Source of the DNA: Candidatus Jacksonbacteria bacterium RIFCSPLOWO2_02_FULL_44_20
GTDB taxonomy: Bacteria > Patescibacteriota > Patescibacteriia > UBA9629
NCBI GenBank assembly: GCA_001818155.1
Contig: MHJU01000036.1
Location: 3,615-67,614 of the forward strand
Direction of reading: 5' to 3'
DNA: 64,000 nucleotides
Shown here: piece after piece, positions 28,671-62,200 of the stretch
Numbering within the stretch: the first letter of the stretch is position 1
Layout: every line of letters starts with the position of its first letter
Made by a program: the position numbers and the translations under genes
The notes under the pieces: generated by a model
Databases searched by the model: none
The model's input: the letters and a program-made list of their open reading frames with translations, nothing else
Told to the model about the DNA's origin: nothing

Positions 28671-28695
28671 GGGATGTTCCACTAAATTCTGTTGA
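28671..28695. repeat. Left terminal inverted repeat of the IS
   Basis: Exact 25-bp inverted match to 29732-29756. Confidence 0.8.
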
Positions 28696-29665
28696 TATTT
28701 CCGTTGCAAATCACGTATCTCTTTAAGCGAAGAAAAGCAGTGGCTCGAAGCAATACCGATTGTGGTGTGCGTGCCGTTCTTGTCGCCCGACGCACCATTC
28801 GACCGGTCGATTCAATGGCGCTCGTGGTCGTCGGCAAATGCAGGCTTGGATAACGCAGATATGTTTGAAAGTCCTGCTCGCGTTCCAGAAATTCCAGAAC
28901 TTGTTTGCGGATATATGGCGGACAGACAAGGCGGTTAATGAGCACTCGAAGAATTTTTCTAGCCTGCTTGAGAACGCGCTCATTTCGAGAACCCAGGATC
29001 ACTCTCGTTGCTTCCAGTATCTTGTCGCGAAGATTACTGCTTCGTATCCGGTATCGCCGCTTGCCTTTGCCGCGCACAAGAGTTGCGAGAAGGTGAAAAT
29101 GACATCGCTGGTGTTGCCAACGGTTCTGTTCCGAAAGAAGCTGTGAACCCCTGAATCCATCGGAAACAAAGGCAGAAACACGATTTTTCACGTTCAGTGG
29201 AATAGTGGCAACCGCCCTCACCCACCGCTCATAGCATTCCCGCCCCTCGAACAACACTGGATCGAAAAAATATGCTTTGTGGCCGCAAGCGGGCTTTACG
29301 GCCATGAGATACATAACCCATTCTCTGCGCTTGAATTTGAAGTACAGACCGTCGCCCAAGAGCGCATATGGCCCGCGGGGAAGGCGTTTGAGCGGATGTC
29401 CGGCGGCAATTGCCCGCATGGCTTTGACATAGCGTGAGGCAATGCCGCTTTTGGAAAGACGAATATACCTTTGTTCTTGGACAATCGTGTATTGTTCAAC
29501 AAGTATCCGCTGAAGCAGCGAGATGGCATGACGTTTGCGCTTTCGCCCCCGCCGTTTCTTCCGAACGCTCCATGTATGTTTGCAGACGTTGCACTGCCTG
29601 CGACGTTTGCCGAAACGATTTATGCTCCCTCGGCAACAAGGAGATTTCGCGTGTTGTGTGGCCAT
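28682..29665 (-). CDS. Transposase, probably a single-ORF IS1-family enzyme (fused InsA-like zinc finger and InsB-like catalytic domain).
   Basis: N-terminal zinc finger CCRGS...RRQCNVCKHTWSV (compare IS1 InsA C.HCRKTW). Later VSDGFRGSQ resembles TDGW..Y, and TSAIESTGRMVRRATRTARTPQSVLL..ATAFLRLKRYV resembles T..IER.N..LRQH.AR..RK..FSK. Its stop codon lies inside the left IR. Confidence 0.6.
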   Translation of the reverse strand: MATQHAKSPCCRGSINRFGKRRRQCNVCKHTWSVRKKRRGRKRKRHAISLLQRILVEQYTIVQEQRYIRLSKSGIASRYVKAMRAIAAGHPLKRLPRGPYALLGDGLYFKFKRREWVMYLMAVKPACGHKAYFFDPVLFEGRECYERWVRAVATIPLNVKNRVSAFVSDGFRGSQLLSEQNRWQHQRCHFHLLATLVRGKGKRRYRIRSSNLRDKILEATRVILGSRNERVLKQARKILRVLINRLVCPPYIRKQVLEFLEREQDFQTYLRYPSLHLPTTTSAIESTGRMVRRATRTARTPQSVLLRATAFLRLKRYVICNGNINRI

Positions 29666-30070: not shown

Positions 30071-30107
30071 AAATAAAAATCCCCCGTAAACCGGGGGATT
30101 TTTTTGG
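30071..30107. terminator. Bidirectional rho-independent terminator
   Basis: aaaaaaaat-ATCCCCCG-taaac-CGGGGGAT-ttttttt: an 8-bp GC-rich stem flanked by an A-run and a T-run. Confidence 0.6.
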
Positions 30108-30328: not shown

Positions 30329-30488
30329 TGTGATGACCTTTTGATGTACTTTGCTTGAGATAAGATGTAAAAGGTCTCCATGTTTTGCTTATAAAGCAAA
30401 CGTACGGCAGATGATTTACGAAACTACAACTCAAAACAAAATACTTACATTATGTCGTATAGAATAGCATAACAGCAAGACTGTGTCA

Positions 30489-30514
30489 ATTATGTTCATG
30501 GACTTGAACATAAT
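30489..30514. promoter_or_regulatory. Perfect 10-bp inverted repeat (ATTATGTTCA-tggact-TGAACATAAT), a candidate operator upstream of the ECF sigma promoter.
   Basis: Exact palindrome 17 bp upstream of the -35 element. Confidence 0.35.
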
Positions 30515-30530
30515 GTGTATATTATAACTA

Positions 30531-30558
30531 TTGACTTATTTTTATTTTATGGTATAGT
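30531..30558 (+). promoter_or_regulatory. Sigma70-like promoter (TTGACT, 16-nt spacer, TATAGT) upstream of the ECF sigma gene.
   Basis: ttgact at 30531-30536 and tatagt at 30553-30558; the CDS starts at 30605. Confidence 0.4.
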
Positions 30559-30604
30559 GTAAGCCACTTTAAGTAAGGAATGCCCATAAAAAACGTCATC
30601 TTTT

Positions 30605-31111
30605 ATGAAATTATCTTCAGTACGGGAGAAAAAATTCACTGATGCGTATAATTCGTATAGTGACGCTCTATTTCGGTTTTGTTTTTTCCGCATATTTGAC
30701 CGCGAACGAGCCAAAGAACTGATGCAGGAGGCTTTCACCAGAAGCTGGGATTATGTAAGGCGCGGAAATGACATCAAAAATATCCGCGCGTTTCTTTATA
30801 AAACAGCCAGACATCTTATTATTGATGAGGCGCGAAAGAAGAGCAATGCTTATAAAGAAGATATTGATACATGCGAAGAACGCCTTGCTGTACCGGCTAA
30901 ACAAGAATTAGATATAGATATCGGACTCGCTTATGACGCGCTTAAAAAACTAGATGAACCCTGCCGCGAAGCCGTTACGTTGCGCTTTGTAGAAGGTTTT
31001 TCACCTAAAGAAATCGCGGCGATGGTTGGGGAATCGGAAAACGTAGTTTCGGTTCGCATCCATCGCGGAATTCTAAAACTTCGCGCGCTTTTGCTTCACA
31101 ATGACCCATAA
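30605..31111 (+). CDS. RNA polymerase sigma-70 factor, ECF subfamily
   Basis: Region 2 (AFTRSWDYVRRGNDIKNIRAFLYKTARHLIIDEARKK) and region 4 HTH (FSPKEIAAMVGESENVVSVRIHRGILKLR). Confidence 0.8.
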   Translation: MKLSSVREKKFTDAYNSYSDALFRFCFFRIFDRERAKELMQEAFTRSWDYVRRGNDIKNIRAFLYKTARHLIIDEARKKSNAYKEDIDTCEERLAVPAKQELDIDIGLAYDALKKLDEPCREAVTLRFVEGFSPKEIAAMVGESENVVSVRIHRGILKLRALLLHNDP

Positions 31112-32597
31112 ATTTGCACAATTTTTTTTCAAATTACTTCAGGGAACTTGCCTTACCGACGCCGAACGCGCCGCTATTCGCGCTGATTTTATCGCGCACA
31201 TGCGCGCGCGCCCATATACGCAAACGCGCGCGGAAAATCCTTTACAAACAATCGCATTCTTTCTTTTCAAAAAACCCGCGGCGATTACGCTATGTCTTTC
31301 GCTTGTCGTATTTGGCGCAGGAAGCGTTGCCTACGCGTCAAACAACTCGCTTCCTGGTGAGGCGCTTTACACGATTAAAGTAAACGTTGTAGAAGAGGTC
31401 AAAAGCGCGTTTCTTTCAAAAGAAAAAAAAGCGAGGTTTGAAGTTGAACGCACAGCGCGGCGCATCCAAGAAGCAACCAAACTTGCTTCAGAGAATCGTT
31501 TAACTCCGGAAACTCTCAAATTGATGGAAACTCATTTAGAAGAACACGCGCAAACAATTTCTAAACTTACTGAAACGATCAATGCGGAGGGAAACGCAGA
31601 AATCAGCGCCGATATTCATACAGAACTCCAAGCGACGCTTGCGGCAAACAAGGAGATATTTACGGCTGTCATTCCTGAAGAAAGCATAGAGGAAACGCAA
31701 ACTCTTATTGCGGCAATTGAGACGATAGAAGATGCGGCAAAACTGGAAACAACCGAGGCGGTTATCGCGCTTGTGCAAAACGAAGATATACCAAAATACG
31801 ATCTTCAAAAAATTTCAGAAGAGACGCGAGTTTTGATAGAAGAAGAGACCGCGGCAGTGCGGCAAATGGTTGAAACCGCGCCGGAAACAAGTTCAATCGC
31901 GCGGAAATTCGCCGCGGTGCAAAAAATCACGGAAGAAGGTGAACGACGCTTGAAAGAAGGAGCTGTTCGGGAATCAGTGGCGCTTTTCCAAGAAGCGAAA
32001 ATACGCGCTAAAGAGGTAAGCGTGCTTGTTGAAACCTCCAAAGAACCGCAAATCAAAATCCAGGCAGACGAAAACGAGCCCCAAACTGCACCACCCCAAA
32101 TTACAAATGCGCCGCGTGAAACGATTGCCAAAATCCCCATTGGACAACCGGCAAGCGCTGAAATGCCGTCGCCAACCCAGGCCAAGATAGAACAGCCGCT
32201 CCCAAATACTCCGCCAAAAATAATCAGTTATCCGTCCGTACCGGTTGGCGCGCCTCAAAGCGAAATACCCTTTACATGGGAAGCTTTTGATCCGGAAAAT
32301 GACACGTTGCGATGGGAAATATGGTGGGGAGACGGGGAAAGACGAGAAAACCAAGAGGTATGCGAATCCTCGTCTTGTCCTCGTGTCAGCGCTTCGCACA
32401 CCTTTACAGATCCCGGATTATACACGGCGCGCGTGCGCGTTTATGACGGCAAAGGCGAATCTGACGGATATAGTTTTATTATAGATATCCGCGCAACCGC
32501 AGAAGAACAAACAAGCGCCCAGGAACCAGTCGCGCCCTCTGAACGCAGAGAAGGAGAGAGTATAACCCCGATACGAGAGCGAGAGCGCAGACGGTAA
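31101..32597 (+). CDS. Putative membrane-anchored anti-sigma-like protein with a long helical region and a C-terminal PKD-like domain.
   Basis: Start overlaps the sigma stop by 11 nt. One TM segment (AAITLCLSLVVFGAGSVAYA), then a long E/A/K-rich helical segment, then IPFTWEAFDPENDTLRWEIWWGDGE...SHTFTDPGLYTARVRVYDGKGESD (PKD fold signature). Confidence 0.5.
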   Translation: MTHKFAQFFFKLLQGTCLTDAERAAIRADFIAHMRARPYTQTRAENPLQTIAFFLFKKPAAITLCLSLVVFGAGSVAYASNNSLPGEALYTIKVNVVEEVKSAFLSKEKKARFEVERTARRIQEATKLASENRLTPETLKLMETHLEEHAQTISKLTETINAEGNAEISADIHTELQATLAANKEIFTAVIPEESIEETQTLIAAIETIEDAAKLETTEAVIALVQNEDIPKYDLQKISEETRVLIEEETAAVRQMVETAPETSSIARKFAAVQKITEEGERRLKEGAVRESVALFQEAKIRAKEVSVLVETSKEPQIKIQADENEPQTAPPQITNAPRETIAKIPIGQPASAEMPSPTQAKIEQPLPNTPPKIISYPSVPVGAPQSEIPFTWEAFDPENDTLRWEIWWGDGERRENQEVCESSSCPRVSASHTFTDPGLYTARVRVYDGKGESDGYSFIIDIRATAEEQTSAQEPVAPSERREGESITPIRERERRR

Positions 32598-32684
32598 GAA
32601 AACGCCGTCCGCTCCGTCATCTTTATCATCAACTAATCGTCCCTTCTTAAAGAGTTCGCTTTTTGAGCGGGGAAACAACAGTAT

Positions 32685-34295
32685 ATGCGCGCAATTAAAA
32701 AACAGGCAATCGCTTTTTTTATTGCCCTCACAGTTCTCACCATGAGCGGATACCCGCAAATCGGAAGCGCAATCATAAAGCCATCGCACGATAGTATATG
32801 GCGCTATCCAAACATCGCATCGGTATACAACAAGACATTGCAGAAAAATAATGTGCTTCGTCCGGGCGACGAGATAGAGATAACAGGAACGCGATTATAC
32901 GGCATCAACGGAAAAACGCTCGTGCATTTCGCTCGCAAAATTGACGACGCAAAACCGTGGAAGCCGGGCAATGTCCGCACACTTTCCGCAACCGCAAAAA
33001 TCGTAAACACGCAAATAATTACTCTTATCGTTCCAAAAGTTGAAGGCGCATCCCAGGGATCGCTTCGTATCACAAATTATCGCGTTATCGGACGGCTTGA
33101 ATCAAGCCCTGTTTATCCTGTACAGTGGGAGCCAATATCCCCGCCAACTCCGATTTCGCCGACATTGTCAATCACTCTTGCGGAAGATAATGCCGTAAAA
33201 GCGCCTTCCGTTCAAATTACCGGCGGAACACAAGGAGTGCAAACAATGTACCTCACGTTTAATCCAAAAGGAGAAGACGTACAGCTTCGTTTCTTAAAAT
33301 TAAATCTTGCGAACCTTTCTGCGGCTGACTCTGTGTCTTCAGTGCAACTCTATAACGCTTCCTCAACAAAAATTGCAGACGGCACTTATATTGAAAGTAC
33401 CGGCGAGGCGACATTTGGGAATGGTCAAACAACATTCTACACTTTTCCAAAAGATATATTTACTACACTCACTGTAGTAACTGATGCGCGCGGAGTTGGA
33501 AATGGCACCGCCACCGCGGACTCCGGAGACGAAATCAAGTGGACTGTTGACGCAGAAATCGCAAACGATTTTACAAACTCAATTATCGTGTTTGGCGCGG
33601 CAAGCAACATGCAGTTGCGCTATGATTCAAACAAAACAGAAAGCCAGATTCTTTTTGGAGAAGGATCATCGCAACAGGATATTATCGGCAACATCTTCCA
33701 CATCCGCCGCGCAAGAATGAAAGACCTGATCGCTCTGAAACTCGGCACAACAACGCCGGCTGACGGATCAACAACGACTTTAACAAACGGAAACGGCATA
33801 GAAATTTTCCGCTTTCAAATTTTTGCGGCGCCAAATTCAGACAACGCAAATAGCAATGGGGCGATTGATCTTACAGCGCTTGATCTCTCTTTGTACGCCT
33901 CTGGAGTTACAATCACAAACGCGAAATTTTATAGGACAGATGATGCTTCTGTTGTTATTAACGCAAACGCATCAACTACCACTGCATCGCGCATCGTATT
34001 TGATTCCACCGGAGCGTCTAAACTTACATCCCTTTCACTTATCGCTCCCGGACAAAACGCAATTTTTGCCATAACCGCAGACGTGAGCGACGCCGGTCAG
34101 GGAGATATGTTGCAGGTTTCAATTGGGAACCTCGGCGCGCAAACGACAGAAGGAATAACTGACTTATCAACTGGAGACATTGCGTGGTCTGACAATGATG
34201 ATATAATCACAGACGATCTTACTTCTTGGGTCTCATGGCAAGGCATTGCGATTACGAATGTGGCGGGGCAGACGAGGGTGTTTCCATCAACATAA
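32685..34295 (+). CDS. Secreted protein with a signal peptide and IPT/Ig-like domains.
   Basis: Signal peptide MRAIKKQAIAFFIALTVLTMSGYPQIGSA; EIEITGTRLYGINGKTLVHFA is IPT-like; T/S/N-rich beta-strand repeats. Confidence 0.5.
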   Translation: MRAIKKQAIAFFIALTVLTMSGYPQIGSAIIKPSHDSIWRYPNIASVYNKTLQKNNVLRPGDEIEITGTRLYGINGKTLVHFARKIDDAKPWKPGNVRTLSATAKIVNTQIITLIVPKVEGASQGSLRITNYRVIGRLESSPVYPVQWEPISPPTPISPTLSITLAEDNAVKAPSVQITGGTQGVQTMYLTFNPKGEDVQLRFLKLNLANLSAADSVSSVQLYNASSTKIADGTYIESTGEATFGNGQTTFYTFPKDIFTTLTVVTDARGVGNGTATADSGDEIKWTVDAEIANDFTNSIIVFGAASNMQLRYDSNKTESQILFGEGSSQQDIIGNIFHIRRARMKDLIALKLGTTTPADGSTTTLTNGNGIEIFRFQIFAAPNSDNANSNGAIDLTALDLSLYASGVTITNAKFYRTDDASVVINANASTTTASRIVFDSTGASKLTSLSLIAPGQNAIFAITADVSDAGQGDMLQVSIGNLGAQTTEGITDLSTGDIAWSDNDDIITDDLTSWVSWQGIAITNVAGQTRVFPST

Positions 34296-34325
34296 TTTTA
34301 ACAAACTAACTTTAACAGAAGCGCC

Positions 34326-37300
34326 GTGACAGCGCTCTCAAAAAAACCTATGTTATCTCACATCAAAAAATATTCCGCGGCGGCGCTTATGGCGGTTGCC
34401 GCGGTAGCGCTGTTTGCCTATACTTCTGTATACGCGCAAACAATCACCGATACTCCTACGCTTAATGTTTCCATTTCTCCCGATACGCCTCCTTCCCAAA
34501 CCTTTCTTCCATCAACAAAAAATGTTACCTTTGCTACATTCTCTTTTGCGGCTTTGAATGCTGATATACGCATAGCGAAAATCACCTTTACCTTTACCGG
34601 GACAGCTCTCACAAACACGAGCGTGAGTAATATACGCCTATGGGACGAGACCGGTTCCACACTAACTACTCCAGTTTCGTCACCTATAGATAGTAACAAC
34701 CAAGTCATCTTTTATGACTTACGCGGAGTGATTTCTAAAGACACTGTCAAAAAAATACGTCTTGTAGGAGACATCACAGAAAATCCAGGTGAGGGCACCG
34801 TTATGTTTAGTATCAACCAGCAATCTCATATTATTGCGTATAAAGGTGATACAGTAGAAAATCCCATTACACCATCTGGCACATTCCCGATTAAAGGGAA
34901 CGTGATGACGATTGTGAGCGATCCAACAACAAACAAACCCCCGGTCATCACCGGCGTCTCGGGACCGACTTCGCTTAAAGTAAACGAAACCGGCACGTGG
35001 ACGATAACAGCGAATGACCCTGAAGGCGGCGCTTTAACCTATACGATTGATTGGGGAGATTCAACTTCATTCCCAACACCCATCTCTCCACCCGCAATAC
35101 TTAATAGCGGACAAAAAGCAACCTTTACCCATTCATACGCGCAAGCTGGAACCTATACTGTTAGCTTTACCGTCACCGACGACAAAGGCGCGAGCGCGAA
35201 GTCAACCATAACAACAGCCGTTACAGACGAATTGCTACCTGACTTAAAACCAGTAAAATTAGAGATTACTAACCCTTCAAGAACTGGCAATGAAATCTGG
35301 AAAGCTGGGGATCGTTTATCAGTTGCTATTGGAATAAAAAATATCGGCTCTGCACAAACACCAACAAAAGTAAGTTATACCGTTAATTTAGGCTTTGTCC
35401 AATTAGAAAGTGAAACGCCTACTACTTTAAAACCACAAGAGGTATATGAATCTCTTCATACAGTAACCTTGCAATCTGATATCACAAAAACATTCAATGC
35501 TACTCTTACCGCAGATCAGAGCTATGCATCAACAGGATGGACACCTATTAAAGAAACAGACGAAACAAATAACGCGTTAGCCATAGTACTTATTATCGGC
35601 AAAGAAAATACCCCTCCCGTCATCACCGGCGTCTCGGGACCAACTTCGCTAAAAGTAAACGAAGAAGGAAAGTGGATTATAAATGCCAATGATCCTGAAG
35701 GAGGATTATTTACTGTCACTGCTGACTGGCAAGACGGTTCTACTCCTGAATTTCCAACAGGAACAAGCACGATTGCATTCCATCATCGTTATACCTCAAC
35801 AGGCAATTACAGCATCACCTTTACCGTAACCGACGACAAGGGCGCGAGCGCGAAGTCAACGGTAAGTGTGAATGTAATAAATATTGATGCTTCAAACGTT
35901 ATTGTCATTTCTCCCACATGGACAGATGCATGGCAAATAGGATATGAATATAATATTTTGTGGACATATCCAAAAGAACTTGCAAATAAAAAAGTTAATG
36001 TGTTTGTACTTGCCTTGCCATACCCATCTTATGAGTCTCAAGGAACAATTATTTTTCAAAAAGATGGGGTGACAGCACCCTCTCCAGATTTAGCGGGAGA
36101 AGTGATTGGAAATACGATGTGGAAGATCCCAGCAAGTATCAAAACAGGACAATATAACGTTCAAGTCCAGGTAACAGCAGTTGATACCGGCAAATTCTAT
36201 GATGATTTAAGTGATCTTTTTTCTATAGTTCAGTCACCTACTATAAACCAACCCGCCATCACCCGCATCACGCCTACCTCCGGCGCGCCCGGCACCGTGC
36301 TCACCATCTACGGCAAGAATCTCCAAGACGACTGCGGCAAGCGCGAGGAGCGCGTATGCCAGTTGACGATCTCTCTCGGCGGCTACGAAATCAAGCGCGA
36401 TCGGTTTGTGGAATTTAAGGTAACGTGGGCTCAGGATCGTATTACACTCGTGGTTCCGCCAAAGGCGCAAACAGGGGCAGTGAGGATTATGCGTGTTGAT
36501 AGCGAATACAAGGATAAGTCGTATGATATTATGGGACCGGTGTTTACGGTAGCAAATAAAATTTTTCCCGGAATAGTATGTGAAGTAAAAATTCCGGAAA
36601 ACGTAATTATCATTGACTCTTATGTAGACGTTGGACAGGGAAACAGCGCTTATTGGATTAAAAATGGCGGAACATTAAAAACAGGCGCTGGAAGTAATAA
36701 ATTTTTCATTGAAAACGGAGGTAAAAAATTTGGTGGCGGGGGCAGCCATACTGCATATGTTAAAAAAGGCGGTTCCTTTGATGGAGAAGGTGGGAGCAGT
36801 AATCTAATTTATTATGAAGAAGGGGCAAATATTACTAACCCTGGCGGCAGTTCTGAGATGAAAAAATGTGGTCAGATTACTTTTACCTCATCTTCAACAA
36901 TAACAACTCCACCCACAACCACCCAAATCCGCGACACAGCCCGAACGCTCCACGCCGATAACATAGACGCTCTCCTTGCAGAAATCAAACTACTGCGTTC
37001 TCAAGTGCGCGAACAGGAGACAAAGATTAAATACCTTGAAAAATTAACGAGCGGCGCACAGGAAATCTCTCAAAAAACAGAAGAGCAATTAAACACCTTC
37101 ATCGCCTACGGCGTTGACGAGAATACCAAACGATTAGGCACTGGAGAACGAGCGGCGGTCTTGCATTCGTTCAAGTCAGCGTTCAACAAACTTCCGGAAT
37201 CAGAAGATGAATTAAACGACGCGATCTTAATCGCAAACGGCAAATGGCCAAAAGCGCGGAGCGAAGAGGCGGAAGCGCGCGCGGAAAAAGAGTTTAAGAG

Positions 37301-37520
37301 AATCTACAAACGAGAGGCAGTTATGGACAATCAAAACGACAACGCCGCAATAACCGTGATGGCGTACGGACTGCGCCAACGAGCGGAAAACAGAAATCTG
37401 ATAAGCGAGGCGCAAGGCATCAAAACCTTCAAACACATCTACGGACACGTGCCACAAACAACTGAAGAGTGGAACCTAATGCAAGGGATTACTTATTCAG
37501 GAGCAACGGCAAAGCAGTAA
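34326..37520 (+). CDS. Large secreted surface protein of 1064 aa with two PKD domains, an IPT domain and a C-terminal coiled-coil region.
   Basis: Signal peptide, then two copies of PPVITGVSGPTSLKVNE.G.W.I.ANDPEGG...HSY...G.Y...FTVTDDKGASAKST, then IPT-like PAITRITPTSGAPGTVLTIYGKNL. A terminator follows. Confidence 0.6.
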   Translation: MTALSKKPMLSHIKKYSAAALMAVAAVALFAYTSVYAQTITDTPTLNVSISPDTPPSQTFLPSTKNVTFATFSFAALNADIRIAKITFTFTGTALTNTSVSNIRLWDETGSTLTTPVSSPIDSNNQVIFYDLRGVISKDTVKKIRLVGDITENPGEGTVMFSINQQSHIIAYKGDTVENPITPSGTFPIKGNVMTIVSDPTTNKPPVITGVSGPTSLKVNETGTWTITANDPEGGALTYTIDWGDSTSFPTPISPPAILNSGQKATFTHSYAQAGTYTVSFTVTDDKGASAKSTITTAVTDELLPDLKPVKLEITNPSRTGNEIWKAGDRLSVAIGIKNIGSAQTPTKVSYTVNLGFVQLESETPTTLKPQEVYESLHTVTLQSDITKTFNATLTADQSYASTGWTPIKETDETNNALAIVLIIGKENTPPVITGVSGPTSLKVNEEGKWIINANDPEGGLFTVTADWQDGSTPEFPTGTSTIAFHHRYTSTGNYSITFTVTDDKGASAKSTVSVNVINIDASNVIVISPTWTDAWQIGYEYNILWTYPKELANKKVNVFVLALPYPSYESQGTIIFQKDGVTAPSPDLAGEVIGNTMWKIPASIKTGQYNVQVQVTAVDTGKFYDDLSDLFSIVQSPTINQPAITRITPTSGAPGTVLTIYGKNLQDDCGKREERVCQLTISLGGYEIKRDRFVEFKVTWAQDRITLVVPPKAQTGAVRIMRVDSEYKDKSYDIMGPVFTVANKIFPGIVCEVKIPENVIIIDSYVDVGQGNSAYWIKNGGTLKTGAGSNKFFIENGGKKFGGGGSHTAYVKKGGSFDGEGGSSNLIYYEEGANITNPGGSSEMKKCGQITFTSSSTITTPPTTTQIRDTARTLHADNIDALLAEIKLLRSQVREQETKIKYLEKLTSGAQEISQKTEEQLNTFIAYGVDENTKRLGTGERAAVLHSFKSAFNKLPESEDELNDAILIANGKWPKARSEEAEARAEKEFKRIYKREAVMDNQNDNAAITVMAYGLRQRAENRNLISEAQGIKTFKHIYGHVPQTTEEWNLMQGITYSGATAKQ
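34930..35890 (+). repeat. Intragenic tandem duplication of a PKD-domain unit: two copies about 670 bp apart.
   Basis: Near-identical stretches at about 34948 and 35615 (cccggtcatcaccggcgtctcgggacc.acttcgct.aaagtaaacgaa) and at about 35165 and 35820 (tttaccgt.accgacgacaa.ggcgcgagcgcgaagtcaac). Confidence 0.6.
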
Positions 37521-37549: not shown

Positions 37550-37577
37550 AAGCCCCGACGTTTTAGCCGGGGTTTTT
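37550..37577. terminator. Rho-independent terminator between the convergent large surface gene and relE
   Basis: aaagCCCCGacgttttagcCGGGGttttt. Confidence 0.5.
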
Positions 37578-47675: not shown

Positions 47676-47823
47676 CAATGTCGCTTAATACAGTATACTG
47701 GATTCCAGTCGTCTACAAAGACGGCTATCTTATTTACTAGTAGAAATAGGTTCTTTGAAAATTGCATATAATCAATACAGCTATCTAAAAGTGATAGTCC
47801 TCAATTTGAAAGTTTTAGTATTT

Positions 47824-49365
<1,542 letters not shown>

Positions 49366-49529: not shown

Positions 49530-49605
49530 GCCGACTTAGCTCAGCGGCTAGAGCAACTGTTTTGTAAACAGTAGGTCCGGGGTTCAAATCCCCGAGTCGG
49601 CTCCA
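49530..49605 (+). tRNA. tRNA-Thr(TGT)
   Basis: gccgacttagctcag..., anticodon stem actgt/acagt, loop tttgtaa, encoded CCA. Very similar to E. coli thrU. Confidence 0.8.
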
Positions 49606-49617
49606 GAGGCATAAGAG

Positions 49618-49694
49618 GGGCGCGTAGCTCAGCTGGTTAGAGCACGTCACTGATAATGACGGGGTCGGAAGTTCAAATCTTCCCGCGCCCACCA
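49618..49694 (+). tRNA. tRNA-Ile(GAT)
   Basis: gggcgcgtagctcagctggttagagca, anticodon stem cgtca/tgacg, loop ctgataa, encoded CCA. Confidence 0.85.
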
Positions 49695-53210: not shown

Positions 53211-53231
53211 TTTCTTCGTACTGCCCACAGT

Positions 53232-56200
53232 ATGAAACAGTTTCGCAAAGCCATAGTACTTACTCTTTTGATTGGATTAATTTTCCAACAGTTTTTTTTA
53301 TTGCCTCAAGCGCTTTTAGCGCAAGAATCCCCGGCGCCGGAAATTTCATCTGAACCGGATCAGACGCAACTCACTCCAGCTGAAGCGCAGGAATCGGAGC
53401 AACCAGAGGCTCCTCCTGTAGAAACCGAGCCACAGGTGGAACCAGCGCCGGAATCCGAGCCGACTGTGGAAGTAGCGGAGCCATCGGAACAAAGAGAATC
53501 AACGGAGCAGACAGAGCCGCAAACTGTTCCGGAAGAACAAACAGTTGAGGAGCCTGTTCTACCAGTCGCAGAGGAAGATCAAGTATCTACTGAACCAATC
53601 CCGACAGAACCGGAGCCTCAAATTATTGAGGATCTCTCATCAATCGGAGCAAAAGAAGGACTTGCGGGAGAAAGCGAGCCACAGACAATCACTGTTTTGC
53701 AGGAGGACGAAAATATAACAGTTGTAGGAAAAATAGCCGGGGAAACGGTTGCGCAATCAAACCGCGAAGGTCTTGGTATTTTGAAAGGCGATATTGCCGG
53801 CCGCCCTGAAGAGGTGTTTTTCTTTGAGGAACAGGGTGTAAAAAAACAGGTGGTTGATCTTTCAGAACTTATTAAAAAAGAACAAGCGCCTGCTCCTGAA
53901 ACGCCAAGCGCGGGAGAGATAAGCGACAGCGCCGTTACAAAGGGCGGCGAGGGAATTGTTTTGGAAGAGGTTGTAAAACGCGAAGAGAGCGGGAACGCGG
54001 TTTCCGTGAACGTTGAAGATATTACAGTCGTAAAAAAAGAGGAAGGATTTTTTCAAAAATTGTCTGATACTATTTTTGGCGGTAAAAAAGATAACCCAAA
54101 AGAAGAGCGCGTACAGCTTGAGGTTACAAGCAATGGAGAAGTTAAGCTCATTTCAGCTGAAAATGTTGAGGGCGATGAAAAACTGGAAATTGAGTATTCG
54201 TACGGATCGTACACAAAATCATTTGAAGTTTCGTTTGTTCCGATGACTCTTGACGCGCCCTTTACAGTGTCCGAGTTCAGCGAAGGCGAGCTTGAGAAAG
54301 CCGTCAATCGCGTTTTAGATGTGGAGGCGGAAGCTCCCGAGCCGTTGCAATCGGAAGCGATAGAGCCGCAAACATCCGAACCGCCGGTTGAAACGATTCC
54401 AGTCATAGAACCGATAGAACCGACAGTGTCTGAAATTATTCCAGAGCAATCTCCTGAAACTGTTCCTCTTATTACAGAACCTGTAGAGCCGCCTGTTTCA
54501 GAGCCAACTCCGCCTATAGAAGATGTGATTGAATCACAACCAGCGGTTGCTCCGTCCGAGGAGCCGCATGTAACTTCTGAAACTGTACAGTCCGCGCCTC
54601 CGGAAGATGAGGTGATTGTGCCGGTAGAGCTTCCGGAAGAAGGCGCAGTTCAAGGAGCGCGAGTTCAAAATTTTGATACCGGTGAAGGCACGGGAATCGT
54701 CAACCGCATTAAGCGATTTTTCCAGAGTTTTCTCTTTGGAGCCGCACCGGCACGCGCTCAAAACGGCATGCAAACAGTGCAGACATTTCAGGTAAAACTG
54801 AAAACCGCGACTGTTAAAGGCGAACAAACGTTTCAAATTTTACCAAACGGACTCGTGTATCTCTATCACGGTTCATCTATTGAAGCGATCTCGCGTCCCC
54901 GATTTCAGTATCAGGGAACTAGCGGCTGGAATGATTTTGCAATCACCAACGCCTCGCAAGGAACGCAGACAACTGGCGCTACCGCAACGCATCTTATCCA
55001 ATATACAACGTCCGAAGGAGATATTATCACCTTGAAGTATGATTTCGGACTTCAAAATAATCAGATTTTCAAAAAACAAACATGGACGATTTCCGGCGAC
55101 AAAACCGTGCGCGTTTTATGGGAGACGTTGTTTCGCGCCGGTTCTTTTGCCCAGAAAGAGCTCGCGGTTTCTACCCTAAATGAGAGCGGATCCCGCACAC
55201 GGCTCTACGGCGACATTGTGATTGACACGTCTGACTATAAAGGAAACGTCGCGATTGAAGAGGACAAACCGGCAAATATTGTCCGCGTGTATTTTGAAAA
55301 AGACGGGGCGCAAGCGCCGCTTACGATTGATCCCAGTTTTTCGGTTGTAACAGGAGATCAGTTTATTGAAGTTGTGACGCCGGATTTCCAGTCGCCGGGT
55401 TCAGCGACGGGTTGGAAAATTCGCTTTAATCGCTTAAAAGGCGGCGGCATAGATCAGTATTTTAGCAATTCCCTGAACAATGGGGGAACAAATATCTCTT
55501 CATCAACAAAGCCTATTTTCAACATCGTATATACGAGCAACATTTTCAAAGATCTTTCACAAACGCAAGCGTACAGTATGCAGGTGATTGAGCGTGGCGC
55601 AACTCGTTTGCGGGTGCGGGCGCTCGCAAATCTCGGAAACGATGCGCTCACTATAACATATACAGTTTATTTAGCCGGGCAGATTTTTATAGACATTCAG
55701 AACGTTCTTGAAGACGGCTCTATTGCCGGGCAAAACGGCGTGTTTCAACTCAATCAATCTTATGCGGGGTACCAGCAAGGATACGACATAACCGACGCCG
55801 CGCATAATGCGGTTGCGATAGACTCCATAGAAGCCGACACCGCGCTTGTTCCGTTTGTCGCAAGCGATGTCGCCGGAGTTGCGACCAATGTAAGTGAAGA
55901 AGAAGAGGATTATATTCAGGTTGCGCTCGGCACCGCGATAAACGCGATGTACGCAAACGGAAACACCGCGACGAACCAGTTTCTCTTGTCGCTCACCCCT
56001 CCTTACGAAGGAGGGGCTGGGGGAGGTTTAGCTTTAGCCGCCCTCGCCGCCGACTACCAATCCCCGGACTCCCTTACACCATTCACCATCGGCGCGTATC
56101 AAGGGTATAACAATAAAGAAGGCGCGTATGAGATGACGGCAATAGAAGATAAAATTAAGTTTCAGATGAATGGGGCTGATACGCCGCGTTTTTACCCGAT

Positions 56201-59200
56201 TTTTAAGATTGCCAATTGGCAGAACGCGAACCTCGCCGCTGTGTACGCGGAACTTGACAACGGAGAAATTAAGCAGGATTTGGATTATATTCTCACTTTT
56301 GTAAACGGAGACCCAAACACGCACACGTTAATTTTCCAATATCTTGAGCCCTTAACCGACGCGCGGACGTTTTACATAGACCCGACATGCACGTCAAACG
56401 CGACCGGAAACTGGTCAGCGGCCGGCACATGGCAGAGCTGTGATCCGAATACCACTGACAGTGTAACGATAGCAAGCGGGCATGTTGTAACGATGAATCA
56501 GGACGTAACCGTTGACACTATTTATATCCAGCAGGGAACATTGAAGTTTGATACTACTGCGCGGACGCTTACAGTTAATGAGGACGGGGTAAGCAATACC
56601 GGGTTAATTCAGGTGGGCAATGCGGCCGGAAGTAACGATGCTACTTTTGAGTGCACTGGGCCAACAAGCGGCGTGCATACCATTAAGCTCGTTACTAACG
56701 CCGGCACCAACCCAAGCGTCGGCATAGAAGTTGAAACCGACGGACTTTTGAATATCCAAGGCACATCGTCTGCAAACCAAAACTGCGTTGTTAAAAACGA
56801 CGGCGTAACCACCGACGGCACCAAAAACGGCTACATCTACCTCAAAGACGGCTCCGAGACGCTTATTAAAAACGCGGAGATTTCTTATTTAGGGACAAAC
56901 GCAACTACAAAATACGGAATATCCGCGGTGGACGTTGACGGCAACACGAGCGGAGAAGGTTTGATTATTGAGGGTTCGAACGTTCACAATAACTACATCG
57001 GGCTTGCATTTGAAAGCGGGAGCACATATCTTGCCGCCAACCGCAATGTGTTTCGTTTAAGTTCCGACGACGCTATTAAAAGCCTTGCCACAACAGATGA
57101 TTTTAATATAATCACAAATAACGATATTTACTCAAACACAGGAGATGGAATAGACGTAGCCGGGGATGCTTGGACAATGTATGGAAATGCCGTTAATGGA
57201 AACGTGATCGGGATTGCTGTGTCAGGCGGCCCGAACTATATTTATAATAATACACTTAATGGCAACTCAAACGACGGCATAGCAGTAACTGGCGGAACCG
57301 GCACAGTGATTAAGAATAATCTTATTACGATTAACAGCGCTGAAGGAATTGATAACGACGGCACTTCAACAACAATCTCCACAAATTACTATTACAATAA
57401 TACAACCGCTACCTGCACAACCGCAGGCGCCGCGTGCGGAGACACAACCGCAACAGGCTCCGGCACAATTCCAAACTACGTCTCCACAACTGGCGGGAAT
57501 GCAGATTTTCTCTACGTCTCCTCGGACTCCGCCGCGCTTGGGCCCGGGCTAAACATTTTTGCAGACACAGCGCCAGGCACAGTAAACGTGGGCGGACGGC
57601 TTGATTACGTTAAAAACACAACCGACAACGAAGAGTTTAACTGGCTCCAGCAGGCGCACGACGATTCCTCGCTTGGCGCAGGGGATACGGTTACCGCGTA
57701 TGCGGTGAATGTCGCCTCGGACACCGTCGCGGGAAATATAACAGAAGTCAGCTCCATCGCCTCCACATATTACACAGTAAGATTTGACGTCGCCGAGGCC
57801 ACGGTTGTCGCAGACAACGACCACGAAGGATTTTACGCCTACTTCACTTCCGGCGCAAATCGCGGCAGGTATTACCTCATAACCGACTCCGATGAAAACA
57901 CCACCGACACCCTCACTGTTTTAAGCGAACAAGCCGCAACCACCTTCACCGCCGGCGACGGGTTTACGGTGGTGGATCGGGTGTATGCGAGGGCGGGAGG
58001 GGGCGCAAACTGTACCGGGAATACCGCAAATCTGTGTCTTCTCGCAGACGGCGGAGCGTCTACGCTAATTACCTGGAATACAAATGGCACAGTTATTGTT
58101 GACGCTCAAAATACACGCACATACGGGATATACTTAAACCGTTCTAACCATGTGCGGCTTGATGGATTTATTGTTCAAAATGCTGTTACTCATGGTATTA
58201 GCGGAAATACAGCCACAACCCCTGTACACCTTGCGAATATTGTGGCCGCTTATAACACGAGGGACGGTGTTAGTGTTAGTTGGAATGGGTGGGTGATGAG
58301 CGATACGATAACTTTCAGCAATGGATGGGCGGGCATAGGAAGCGCGGCGGGCGACTTTGACAGTTCGTATGTTATCAACCCAGTGAGTTTTCGTAATTCA
58401 CAAAATGGAATTTCCAACGGACAGGGACCGAATAACACAGTGGTCGGAGCAAAGTTGTTCGGCAATACTTCAAATGGGTGGATTGTTGATAAAAATTCAG
58501 GCGGAACCAGTATAAAGAACTCATTCGTATTCTCAAACCCCAATAACATTAAATTTTCTGATTGGGCGAGCAACACAAACAATAAAGTTGTCAATAATAC
58601 GGTTGTTGGCGGGGCGACTGACGGTATTTTCATTGTCGCCTCAATGCCCGCGGCAGTAATACGGAATAATGTCATTGCGTATAATGCCCAAGATGGGTTG
58701 GATGATGATAGCGGAGCTACTTCGGAGACATACAATTATTTCTATGGCAATGGGGAGAACATAGATGGAGGCGGCGCCATAGGCACTGGGTCTCTTTCCG
58801 TCACCGACCCCGGGTTTTACAGCGAGGTGTCTGCTGTTGTGCTTGCCGCCGGGGCAACCACGACTACGGTTGATGTAACCGGCACGCAGGCGTGGACGGA
58901 AAACCAGTGGGTTGGAGCGGGGCTGACATTCACCGGCGGGAGTTGCAACATCGCGGCAAACACCTGGTTTGGGATTACATCAAATTCCAAAGAGATGCTG
59001 TTTTTCGCTCCAGCCGCATCAGCCGTGCCAAACACAAGTTGTACAGGAGTAATTACAAACTTCTACATCGCAAACACCACCTCCGCGACCACGCCCTTAG
59101 GCCAAGGCGCACGCCACGACGGCGCAACCGAGCCCGGCACCGTAAACATGGGCGCGCGGCTGGGGTATGTATTAAATGACGACCAAGCAAGCGCCGACAT

Positions 59201-62200
59201 CAAGCACAATTGGTTACAAGACGCCCACGACCACGCGAATGTAAACGCCGGAGATACGATCACAACTTACACGGTAAACGAGGTTTCAGACACGCTCGGC
59301 TCAACCCTTACCGACAACGGGCCCTATCTTACTCTTGACGCCGCAACCTCAACAACCATTGCCGCGGCAGACGATTACATCGGCTTTTATATGTACATGA
59401 CCTCTGGAACAAACAGAGGAAAGTATTATCTGATAATTGATTCCACGACAGGTACCCCCGACACAATCTCCATCGCCGCGACCGACGGCACCTCGCTTAA
59501 CACGACCGGCTTCAACCCCGGCGATGGGTTTACGATTGTGGATCGGGTGTATGCGAGGGATTCTGGCGAGTCAACAAACTGTACCGGAACCGAGAATTTA
59601 TGTCTTTCAAAAGCAGGCAACTCAAACGGCACTGCGCCTATTACATGGACTACTTCTGGCGCTGTGGTTATTGATTCTGCCGGAGTGCGAAGTTACAGCA
59701 TAGATATTGCCGGCGCGGACTACAATATAGTAAACGGTTTTACGGTTATCGGCGGACTTTTAGACGGCATTCGGCTTACGAATGTAAACAACAGCAGGTA
59801 TGCTAATTTAACCGTTGCGAGAAATACTGGAATGGGCATTAACGACGGCGCGGGCAATCAAGATAATTTATTTGAAACAAACACGGTATTTTCAAACACA
59901 AGCCATGGAATAGGCGGTATCAATCAATCTTTTGTAAACGGCAATACGGTGTACGGAAACTCTGGACGGGGGATTGATGTAAGTGGGACGAGCGCGGTGT
60001 ATAATAATAATCTTTACGCAAACGCGGATAGCGTATTTATGGCCGGCGCGGACAACACGATTCGCGGAAATAAGATTTTGCGAGACACGCAAAGCGGAAT
60101 AGTTTTTTCAGGGAGCGCAACATCAAGCGCTATTACGAATAACCTTTTGCTTGCTAATACCACAAACGGAATTGCCGCAAGTTCGTATTCCGGAAGCAAT
60201 AATGCTATTCGCAATAATATCATCACCAATACCGGTACGGGCATCAATCTATCCCTTCACGCGACCGATGTTTCTAATTTTAATTATTTTTACAGTAATA
60301 CAACGAATGTTGTCGGCGGTGAAGGGGCGCAATCACTTCCCGCAAGCGGCGGGGCTGGAGGAACTGATCCGAATTATAGTTTTGATGTTTCCGCGACAAA
60401 TGTTACCGCGGGGTCAACCGGTGAGATAGATTTAACAGGCACTCAAAACTGGACTGCCAATCAATGGGCAGGGTATGGTTTAACTTTTATTGACGGCACG
60501 AGCGTGTGCGATTCAGATGTCAAAAATAAATGGTTTGGCATTACCGCAAACGGAGCCGAATGGATTGCGTACTCGCCAACGCCTGCTGATGCTTCCACCA
60601 TTACTAATTGCGCGGCAAAGATTACTAATTTTGCGCTTCCTTCCGTCTCTACCACCACGCCTTTGGGGGGCGGGGCAAACCATGCGGGCACAGCGGCGAA
60701 AGTGAATATGGGGACGCGGCTTGAGTATGTTGAGAACAGCGACGGCACGCGAAATAACGGAATTCAAAACGCCAATGACGCGGGCGCGACAGGCGCGGGA
60801 GACACCTTAACCGTGTACGCGGTTGACGAAGTAACAAGCGGCACGGTTTTTTCCGCCGCGGACAGCGGGCCTTATGTTACCCTTACGCTCTCAACAGACA
60901 GCATCGCCGCAAACGATGACTATATCGGCATGTATATGTATATGACGAGCGGCACAAATGCGAGCAAGTACTATCTGATCATTGATTCGGCAACAGTTGC
61001 AGGACCAGCCGACACAATCGCAATTAACACTTCTGCAACTACCGGCTTTGCCGCAAGCGATACGTTTAATATAATAGACCGCGTGTACAGCACAACCGGC
61101 TATACGTCTGGCGCCACAACAGCAAACGCGCGTTTCACCAAAGACGGCTCATCTGGAAGCCCAATCACATGGAATGCGGTTGCAAGTAACACAGTTTTGA
61201 TAGACGCATCAGGGAAGACATACGGTTTTTACGGCGATACAGACGGTACAAACGGGCTAAAATATAACAATTTTCAGACCGCCGGCACATTCACTTTCTT
61301 AAACGTCTCAAACGGCGCGAACCTGTATCAAGGCGGATTTGGGTTTAATACCACGAGCGTTGTTCACGATCACATTAACTGGGGAGGCGCAACTGACGCA
61401 AGCACTATTTTTACAGGCCAGTATATTTCAAAAATAATTGATATGACGCAGGCGGATCCGGTGTATGGAAATTTGGTGTGGACGCAGAACGCAACAGCCG
61501 GCACGAGCGACGTTGTTATGCATACAAGAAGTACGGACACCGCAAACGGAAGCGACATCGGCACAAAAACGTTTGTAGGTCCTGACGGAACCGCAAACAC
61601 TTCGTATTCCACCGAAACCGGCGAGGCCATCGCGGATGCGCATAACACGCATCAATATTTCCAGTATCGCGCCACACTCACCACAACCTCAAGCAATACG
61701 CTTCCGGAACTCACCTCGACAAGCGTGAGCCAGGAAGCAGAATTAACATCCTCTCCTTTTAACACGCAGGCCGCGGAAACATTGTTTAACGATGTTGTCT
61801 GGACAGAATCCGACGGCGCAAGCGGCACCATTCCATCCGGCACAGACGTTCGCATTCAGGTTCGTAGCGCGCCGGATTCAAGCGGGGCCCCTGGCACATG
61901 GACATCGTGGTGCGGGCCAAACGACGGAGTCTCGGGAAGCTGTACTTCAACAACTTACTTTACGGACTCAACCGGCGCGACCGAGGCACTTGACGATATT
62001 TTGATTGACGCGACAAGCGATCAGTGGATTCAGTATAAAATTTTATTTATCCAGCCCTCAACAAATAAGCCATATTTGAATGATATTACCTTGCAATACG
62101 TTGTAAACACCGCTCCAACGGTCAGTGTTACGTCCGCCTCGCAAGGATCGGACGGCGTCGTAACGGTTGCGTATTCGCTTTCTGACTCGGAAGAGCAGGG

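Follow-up and report, generated by a model that had tools for sequence, protein, structure and literature searches.

An ECF sigma factor gene coupled to a putative membrane-bound anti-sigma factor gene of an uncharacterised family, with a predicted link to two secreted-protein genes in a Candidatus Jacksonbacteria genome

The genome of Candidatus Jacksonbacteria bacterium RIFCSPLOWO2_02_FULL_44_20, a member of the candidate phyla radiation (CPR; Patescibacteria), contains a gene for an extracytoplasmic function (ECF) sigma factor of which the 3′ end overlaps the start of a gene for a predicted single-pass membrane protein of 498 residues. On the same strand, these two genes are followed by genes for two proteins of 536 and 1064 residues that are predicted to be secreted. 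All four are located within the 64-kb stretch of contig MHJU01000036.1 that was analysed here and that is referred to below as the window (coordinates of all features are given in Table 1). In our judgement, the sigma factor and the membrane protein probably constitute a sigma/anti-sigma module of an uncharacterised type that is found CPR-wide and that is wired here to the two secreted-protein genes.

In the model that we propose, the genes for the sigma factor and the membrane protein would be translationally coupled, and the membrane protein would tether the sigma factor via a conserved cytoplasmic N-terminus of ∼45 residues. The helical DUF5667 ectodomain of the membrane protein, together with a lineage-specific PKD domain, may take in an envelope or contact signal. 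The freed sigma factor would then initiate transcription at two predicted promoters of the type GTAAG-N16-CGTC. The first of these, P1, precedes the sigma start codon by 7 nt and would provide positive autoregulation through a leaderless mRNA, while the second, P2, lies across the stop codon of the membrane protein gene and would direct the transcription of the genes for the two secreted proteins, up to a terminator at the end of the unit. The regulatory link to the secreted-protein genes is proposed because the ECF-type motif was found solely upstream of the sigma gene and of the gene for the 536-residue protein. Such a link had already been suggested in an earlier note on this DNA, and the promoter motif makes it a concrete and testable prediction.

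The sigma factor gene and its putative membrane-bound partner

The sigma factor contains a Sigma70_r2 domain (PF04542) at residues 15-80 and an r4_2 domain (PF08281) at residues 110-159, with sigma-1.1 and sigma-3 being absent. Its score against TIGR02937 was 79.8 bits with a cut-off of 42.9, in full agreement with the earlier assignment of the gene to the ECF sigma factors. It could not be placed in a named ECF subfamily, as all NCBIfam subfamily and equivalog models remained far under their cut-offs (e.g. TIGR02985, 80 bits vs 126). The paper on the reclassification of ECF sigma factors (PMC7826278) does not mention CPR taxa in its main text. Since there is an in-frame TAA at 30587-30589, translation of the sigma gene was assigned to the ATG at 30605. 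The TAA stop codon at 31109-31111 overlaps the ATG of the next gene at 31101 by 11 nt, as was also noticed previously.

Contig MHJV01000027.1 (assembly GCA_001818175.1) and several further scaffolds from metagenomes also encode the 498-residue protein, with 100% identity. This protein has a single hydrophobic segment (residues 58-78), which is preceded by an N-terminal region with eight Lys and Arg versus four Asp and Glu residues. A Pro-rich linker separates the helical ectodomain from the PKD domain, and the protein ends in a charged tail with the sequence RERERRR. An AlphaFold2 (AF2) model was built from a five-sequence alignment and had a pLDDT of 55 overall; in an attempt to obtain a deeper alignment, a word-indexed search with the 75-sequence profile described below gave seven proteins. 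In the AF2 model, ectodomain residues 96-313 are predicted to be helical (pLDDT 70-86), and six strands were modelled within residues 388-463 (pLDDT 55-63). The PKD domain was recognised by PKD_4 (PF18911) with 28.4 bits versus a cut-off of 27, and PF00801 reached 23.3 bits versus 23.5. A Foldseek search of the PDB matched solely the PKD part and designed helical repeats, and the best matches were the PKD domains 4xed, 4u6t and 2y72 (E ∼1e-2). This evidence is marginal yet consistent, and the domain is real. The description of this protein in the earlier note as a single-pass membrane protein with a helical region and a PKD-like end is consistent with the hydrophobic segment and the PKD_4 match.

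The relatives of the 498-residue protein were collected in an alignment of 75 sequences, the window protein included. A scan of the genome collection with the single protein as query had given no matches, whereas a scan with an alignment as query was successful. It provided 80 loci (L009-L088) from GTDB species-representative genomes, nearly all of which are metagenome-assembled genomes of Patescibacteria/CPR. The homology of the window protein to DUF5667 (PF18915) is clear despite the sub-threshold score of the protein by itself, because a profile of its first 315 residues detected 12,328 clusters at 50% identity (E ≤ 1e-3; 5,601 clusters at E ≤ 1e-10) and because 74 of the 75 aligned sequences matched PF18915 at E ≤ 1 (72 at E ≤ 0.001). 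The matches to this profile begin at residue 1, and the median length is ∼400 residues. Furthermore, the invariant motifs LPG-x2-LY-x2-K and RR-x2-EA are present in the window protein.

Within the 80 loci, an open reading frame (ORF)-level jackhmmer search identified 82 DUF5667-like proteins. For 71 of these, an ECF sigma gene was located immediately upstream on the same strand, typically with an overlap of 4-11 nt, and the exceptions were mostly contig edges or second tandem copies. The partner family is very large and uncharacterised, and it is almost entirely CPR in the loci retrieved. Its members share a cytoplasmic N-terminal motif of ∼45 residues that reads L-S/T-x2-EK-x3-R-x2-L-x2-FM-x3-PVR. 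It is this motif, together with the topology and the gene context, that points to the 498-residue protein as a putative anti-sigma factor. In P0009, which is a distant relative, DUF5667 occurs together with a FecR domain. FecR is an established anti-sigma family, and this combination represents the only, and indirect, connection to known anti-sigma domains. The PKD domain was found in three of the 75 aligned sequences, all from the clade of the window protein, in which it forms part of a C-terminal extension of ∼180 residues; ten longer members of the family are without PKD. Literature searches returned no papers on DUF5667, nothing relevant that links ECF sigma factors to Parcubacteria, Patescibacteria or Saccharibacteria, and none on leaderless transcripts of CPR sigma genes.

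In four loci (L012, L014, L047 and L054), a second DUF5667 gene was observed near the sigma-linked copy, in tandem or divergent orientation and with no sigma gene directly upstream. This suggests that such second copies are paralogous ectodomain proteins or heteromeric partners.

Predicted promoters and the secreted-protein genes

The sequence GTAAGRAA-N13-CGTCATCTTT has exactly two matches in the window, at 30573 (P1) and 32594 (P2), when up to three mismatches are allowed, while 0.16 matches would be expected. The same two sites were the only ones retrieved from the 64 kb with GTAAG-N16-CGTC, compared to 0.27 expected. Consistently, a position weight matrix derived from other genomes scored P1 at 26.8 bits and P2 at 20.6 bits, and no other site in the window exceeded 12 bits. 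P1 has the sequence GTAAGGAAT-N12-CGTCATCTTT and ends 1 nt before the sigma ATG. P2, with the sequence GTAAGAAAA-N12-CGTCATCTTT, extends across the TAA stop codon of the putative anti-sigma gene, and its CGTC is positioned 66 nt upstream of the gene for the 536-residue protein. In general, ECF promoters combine an AAC-like −35 with a CGT −10 element at a spacing of 16-17 nt, as is the case for sigma-X, sigma-W and sigma-M of B. subtilis. The GTAAG-N16-CGTC layout fits this pattern, and we regard both sites as predicted promoters.

Three other species were compared with the window. The closest ones available were L007 and L008, of which the anti-sigma proteins are 61% and 51% identical to that of the window. 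In the fourth species, L164, the contig begins inside the anti-sigma gene, so that only the 3′ end of this gene and the region downstream are comparable. P1 was conserved in three species (window, L007 and L008) and P2 in all four, while the non-coding DNA around them has diverged. The anti-sigma protein has the C-terminal tail PIRERERRR in the window and in L007, and PIREHRRGG in L008. In L164, where the anti-sigma homologue bears a PKD domain and has another C-terminal tail, P2 is located completely downstream of the stop codon and keeps TGTAAGAAA-N13-CGTC. A separate observation concerns the last ∼40 nt of the anti-sigma gene, encoding ITPIRERERRR, which are identical at the DNA level between the window (32535-32597) and L007 (2880-2940), synonymous sites included. 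This stretch runs directly into the P2 −35 element, and it may reflect a promoter-upstream constraint as well as a constraint on the protein tail.

The motif was also found next to sigma genes elsewhere in the CPR. TAA[GC]-N15-17-CGTC adjoins the sigma start in 29 of 71 CPR loci, where it occurs at 1.63 per kb versus 0.061 per kb elsewhere, an enrichment of ∼27-fold. Of the 28 sites in which the spacing is N16, 18 have an in-frame start codon 4-7 nt after the CGTC. As the start of the sigma gene in the window is fixed at 30605, 7 nt after the CGTC, a transcript from P1 would be leaderless or nearly so, and P1 would make this transcript autoregulated.

Upstream of P1, TTGACT (30531)-16-TATAGT represents the best sigma-70-like match in the 9 kb that were scanned for such promoters (29.5-38.5 kb), which agrees with the promoter site assigned in the earlier note. 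The window, L007 and L008 have the block CTATTGACTTATTTTTATTTTATGGTAT in common, but their −10 elements end differently (in AGT, AAG and GGT, respectively). We consider this site a candidate basal promoter; alternatively, its A/T-rich spacer could be a UP-like element for the downstream ECF promoter. In L007 (∼780-795) and L008 (∼112-127), the −35 hexamer of this conserved promoter is part of a different small palindrome, AGTCAA-CTA-TTGACT, in place of which the window has ATAACTATTGACT.

The 536-residue protein, which has a signal-peptide-like N-terminus, is beta-rich and lineage-restricted. It gave no Pfam or NCBIfam match at E ≤ 0.1, PKD and IPT included, and only two homologous clusters were found. 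Its homologues, which are partial in L007 and L008, follow the anti-sigma gene in L007, L008 and L164. The order sigma, anti-sigma and 536-residue protein gene is thereby kept in L007 and L008, and in L164 the 3′ end of the anti-sigma gene is followed by the gene for the 536-residue protein. Because only two homologues exist, the protein was folded without an alignment, and the resulting AF2 model was unusable (pLDDT 33). The large secreted protein also has a signal-peptide-like N-terminus (MLSHIKKYSAAALMAVAAVALFAYTSVYA), and the true start of its gene is likely the ATG at 34350. It matched PKD_4 in Pfam over two stretches (5.6e-20). Judged by eye, the part behind these comprises a Gly-rich region, a linker rich in Thr, a coiled coil and an unassigned C-terminal domain. 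An IPT-like stretch at residues 640-735 and a CARDB-like stretch were likewise seen by eye only. Segments of this protein gave no tblastn matches in ∼0.8 Mb of other CPR loci, and there was no significant similarity between the two secreted proteins (best E 0.18).

That two proteins with signal-peptide-like N-termini are encoded behind the putative anti-sigma gene was thus correctly recognised in the earlier note, which had furthermore described both as being built from PKD and IPT units. This applies to the large protein as far as the two PKD domains are concerned; the 536-residue protein has none, and IPT/TIG (PF01833) was detected in neither protein at E ≤ 0.1. The same note had inferred the regulatory link from the PKD domain type that the anti-sigma-like protein would share with the surface proteins. 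The similarity in PKD type amounts to 29% and 24% identity (E 2e-5 and 6e-3). We rejected the shared domain type as evidence for a circuit, as this similarity is only generic and as the 536-residue protein lacks PKD. The link as such is retained on account of the ECF-type motif.

The gap between the genes for the two secreted proteins measures 30-54 nt and carries no promoter motif, so these genes would be co-transcribed. Between the anti-sigma gene and the gene for the 536-residue protein there is no terminator; hence, read-through from upstream into the latter gene is also possible. The predicted 5′ untranslated region (UTR) of this gene contains a hairpin that was predicted by RNAalifold for the window, L007 and L008 (−16.4 kcal/mol, with one compensatory pair only), and that covers the GGGGA stretch ahead of the start codon. 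In L164 the hairpin is not conserved. Possibly, it serves mRNA stability or translational control. The unit is closed by a bidirectional intrinsic terminator, beyond which the genes are located on the minus strand.

Alternative explanations

Several observations weigh against the proposed module. The score of the 498-residue protein alone against DUF5667 was 20.3 bits, with a gathering cut-off of 27. Its residues 1-97 were modelled by AF2 with low confidence, and this includes the predicted transmembrane helix. Known anti-sigma domains were not matched in Pfam by the 498-residue protein (E ≤ 0.1) or by any of the 75 aligned sequences (E ≤ 1), and sequence profile searches of the PDB, run for the complete family and separately for its N-terminus, retrieved no anti-sigma factor. 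The strict promoter motif is missing from the loci other than the 29 of 71, and after the anti-sigma gene it was found in three of the 71 loci only. In addition, the third gene, which follows the sigma/DUF5667 pair, is not conserved across the CPR loci. Since the downstream motif is rare and the downstream gene is not conserved, the wiring to secreted proteins would be clade-specific. If transcription starts at the sigma-70-like promoter further upstream, P1 falls within the predicted 5′ UTR, so that the motif there could have another role. Lastly, a surface localisation of the two secreted proteins is suggested by their signal-peptide-like N-termini only.

Conceivably, the DUF5667 protein is not an anti-sigma factor at all, but an envelope protein with, for instance, a structural or scaffolding function that belongs to the sigma regulon, while the sigma factor is controlled otherwise, by transcription alone or by an unlinked partner. 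In favour of this reading, no homology to anti-sigma domains was found in Pfam or with the PDB profiles. The class I anti-sigma unit, a four-helix domain of ∼80-90 residues often with H-x3-C-x2-C, was not recognisable, and the cytoplasmic part of the protein comprises only ∼57 residues, of which ∼45 are conserved. Of the membrane-spanning segment and the sigma-binding N-terminus on which the earlier note had made its reading depend, a hydrophobic segment is present, and a known anti-sigma domain was not detected by profiles. Also in favour of the envelope protein, the only structures similar to its long helical ectodomain, which is rich in Glu and Ala, are designed helical repeats, and second tandem DUF5667 genes without a sigma gene of their own exist (L012, L047 and L054). 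On the other hand, the strict adjacency seen for 71 of the 82 proteins, with start and stop codons that overlap, spans very divergent CPR lineages and is the classical signature of a sigma/anti-sigma pair. The conserved part of the family includes the cytoplasmic N-terminus, with profile matches beginning at the first residue, and P0009 contains a fusion of FecR to DUF5667. We therefore consider it unlikely that the protein is not an anti-sigma factor. Even less probable, in our view, is a transcription of the secreted-protein genes that is independent of the sigma factor, with the motif at 32594 being kept by a coding constraint or as an RNA element. The P2 −35 element does overlap the stop codon and the conserved tail in the window as well as in L007 and L008. 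P2 is also followed by a conserved 5′ UTR hairpin, and weak sigma-70-like matches are present within the region. However, the L164 motif is found wholly past the stop codon beside a different tail, P2 shares its spacing and its extended −10 context (CGTCATCTTT) with P1, and there is no further match to the motif in the 64 kb.

The perfect 10-bp inverted repeat upstream of the sigma gene, which was located as described earlier and has a 6-nt spacer, had been interpreted as a palindromic operator. If so, the sigma operon, and perhaps the divergent zinc-ribbon gene as well, would be under the control of a dimeric protein that represses or activates transcription. The repeat is situated between two divergent promoter-like sites; it is 16 nt from the plus-strand −35 element (rather than 17, as previously noted) and abuts a minus-strand −35 element, and its exact sequence does not recur in shuffles. 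Nevertheless, the palindrome is absent in L007 and L008, though the promoter next to it is conserved base for base along 30 nucleotides. In these two species a tRNA gene is located directly upstream of the promoter, while in the window ∼520 bp with the zinc-ribbon gene lie between tRNA-Ala and the promoter. The palindrome is single-copy in the 64 kb even when three mismatches are allowed, and no regulator gene is evident next to it. Moreover, the existence of the palindrome is not significant, as the window has three loci with perfect inverted repeats of this kind (arms of at least 10 bp, loops of at most 12 nt), and Markov simulations gave 1.3 on average (range 0-6).

A scan of metagenomes with the 18-base core of the palindrome gave 75 matches in unrelated organisms, and the sole informative group was located at the 3′ ends of transposase genes. 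A longer match that includes the left flank TGTCAA, TGTCAATTATGTTCA-N6-TGAACATAA, was found in L089, L109, L117 and L132. In the latter three, this match forms the 3′ end of an ORF that ends in NCQLCSVA and a stop codon, and L089 matches L117 at the DNA level. The full-length ORF of L132, the sole one scanned against Pfam, encodes an rve-type (IS481-like) transposase; the window reads CQLCSWT and a stop codon in the same frame. We estimated the chance of the extra 7-nt flank match at ∼0.01 among ∼45 independent match families. In addition, scaffold gaps in two assemblies of the same species as the window (L003 and L005) start or end exactly at the palindrome, which fits a repeat or a population-variable insertion. 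The palindrome is thus more likely a relic of the end of a mobile element (insertion sequence) than an operator, for which role we see very little chance, and it is most likely unrelated to the sigma circuit. Its use as a marker to define a regulon, as proposed in the earlier note, was likewise rejected, given the single copy in the window and the 75 matches in unrelated organisms.

The zinc-ribbon gene is divergent from the sigma gene and is absent at this position in L007 and L008. The minus-strand promoter-like site that faces it consists of TTGACA at 30489 and a TATTCT ending at 30461, with TG. A perfect GC-rich hairpin with flanking A/T runs (AAAAATCCCCCG...CGGGGGATTTTT, 30075-30103), which separates this gene from tRNA-Ala, looks like a bidirectional terminator. 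Further upstream, in a variable region between a UPF0102 gene and tRNA-Ala, a minus-strand gene (28682-29665) specifies a very basic protein of 327 residues with an N-terminal CxxC...CxxC (MATQHAKSPCCRGS...CNVCKH...). This protein has no Pfam match and is transposase-like by eye. The gene for 16S rRNA (47823-49364, plus strand) is followed by two tRNA genes (49530-49691) and then by protein-coding ORFs. As no match to 23S rRNA was found anywhere in the window, the rRNA genes are unlinked. Finally, a plus-strand frame of at least 3,596 codons (53211-63998) is free of stop codons and continues past the end of the window. With its signal-peptide-like start (MKQFRKAIVLTLLIGLIFQQFFLLPQALLAQE), it looks like the gene for a giant secreted or surface protein, and no match to the ECF motif was found upstream of it.

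Table 1. Features of the sigma factor locus, in window coordinates.
Feature	Position	Strand	Basis or details
Treble-clef zinc-ribbon protein, 71 aa	30113-30328	-	PF23477, 1.7e-13
Perfect 10-bp inverted repeat, 6-nt spacer	30489..30514	.	ATTATGTTCA 30489-30498, TGAACATAAT 30505-30514
Candidate sigma-70-like promoter, TTGACT-16-TATAGT with extended -10 TG	30531..30558	+	10/12 positions plus TG
Predicted promoter P1	30573..30603	+	GTAAG 30573-30577, N16, CGTC 30594-30597
ECF (group 4) sigma factor, 168 aa	30605..31111	+	PF04542, PF08281, TIGR02937
Putative anti-sigma factor, 498 aa	31101..32597	+	Topology, DUF5667 likeness, sigma adjacency
Predicted cytoplasmic N-terminus, residues 1-57	31101-31271	+	
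Predicted transmembrane helix, residues ~58-78	31272-31334	+	Single hydrophobic segment
DUF5667-type helical ectodomain, residues 83-313	31347-32039	+	
PKD domain of 498-aa protein, residues 381-455	32241-32465	+	PKD_4, Foldseek
Predicted promoter P2	32594..32624	+	GTAAG 32594-32598 (contains anti-sigma TAA), N16, CGTC 32615-32618, ATCTTT
Conserved hairpin, 16 predicted pairs, in predicted 5′ UTR of 536-aa gene	32639..32674	+	RNAalifold
Secreted protein, 536 aa	32685..34295	+	Signal-peptide-like N-terminus
Large secreted multidomain protein, 1064 aa (GTG) or 1056 aa (ATG 34350)	34326..37520	+	
PKD domain 1 of 1064-aa protein, residues 203-298	34932-35219	+	
PKD domain 2 of 1064-aa protein, residues ~430-517	35613-35876	+	
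Bidirectional intrinsic terminator, CCCCGAC-GTTTTA-GCCGGGG then TTTTTAT	37553..37572	.	GC-rich hairpin and T run

Relation to known systems and implications

The module resembles the SigW-RsiW, SigX-RsiX and SigM-YhdL/K pairs of B. subtilis and the RpoE-RseA pair of E. coli in that the sigma factor has sigma-2 and sigma-4 only and is coupled to a membrane partner of which the N-terminus is cytoplasmic, as predicted here. Another likeness would be an autoregulatory promoter with an AAC-like −35, a CGT −10 and 16-17 nt in between; the sigma-X type TGTAAC-N17-CGAC is close to GTAAG-N16-CGTC. In contrast to these pairs, the window partner has no detectable zinc-binding or class I domain and conserves ∼45 cytoplasmic residues, its DUF5667 ectodomain has no solved relative, and the window −35 element has a G where AAC has a C. 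The predicted promoters of the sigma genes are also positioned 4-7 nt from the start codon, which would imply leaderless transcripts. Compared to the proteins in Pfam DUF5667 (PF18915), the window protein aligns from residue 1 and has the PKD-bearing C-terminus as an extra part that is confined to its clade.

A similar design principle is known from SigI-RsgI of Clostridium thermocellum, where a membrane anti-sigma factor with a modular extracellular sensor controls genes for large secreted multidomain proteins. However, SigI is not an ECF sigma factor, RsgI has its own N-terminal family and carbohydrate-binding modules, and no homology was detected here. As for FecI-FecR, the relative P0009 carries FecR, whereas the window protein is without a FecR domain in Pfam; there is also no TonB-dependent transducer here, as fits the cell without outer membrane that is assumed for the CPR. 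A very short helical sigma-binding segment would resemble the class II anti-sigma factors CnrY and NepR, but no similarity to their structures was found.

A more far-reaching reading is that DUF5667 defines a structurally new class of anti-sigma factors across the CPR, represented by at least 5,600 clusters at 50% identity (E ≤ 1e-10), which would hold sigma with a two-helix motif of ∼45 residues. The sigma factors would then autoregulate via leaderless mRNAs from promoters 4-7 nt before the start codon, and the PKD domain would monitor the induced PKD surface protein in a feedback loop for a host-attachment surface. Taken as a whole, this scenario is rather unlikely. The module, as we read it, is an ordinary kind of sigma/putative anti-sigma system, of which the partner family is uncharacterised and very widespread in the CPR, and for sigma-factor biology in general it would be an incremental addition without a new principle.

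The CPR bacteria have very small genomes with few recognisable regulators, and to our knowledge almost nothing is known on how they sense their surroundings or hosts. If the anti-sigma role of DUF5667 proteins holds, the two-gene module would rank among the commonest signal-transduction devices of the CPR, and with its motif GTAAGAAA-N13-CGTC one could read regulons straight from metagenome-assembled genomes. Here, the predicted regulon would comprise the two secreted proteins, which are specific to the lineage and for which a role at the cell surface or in attachment is plausible.

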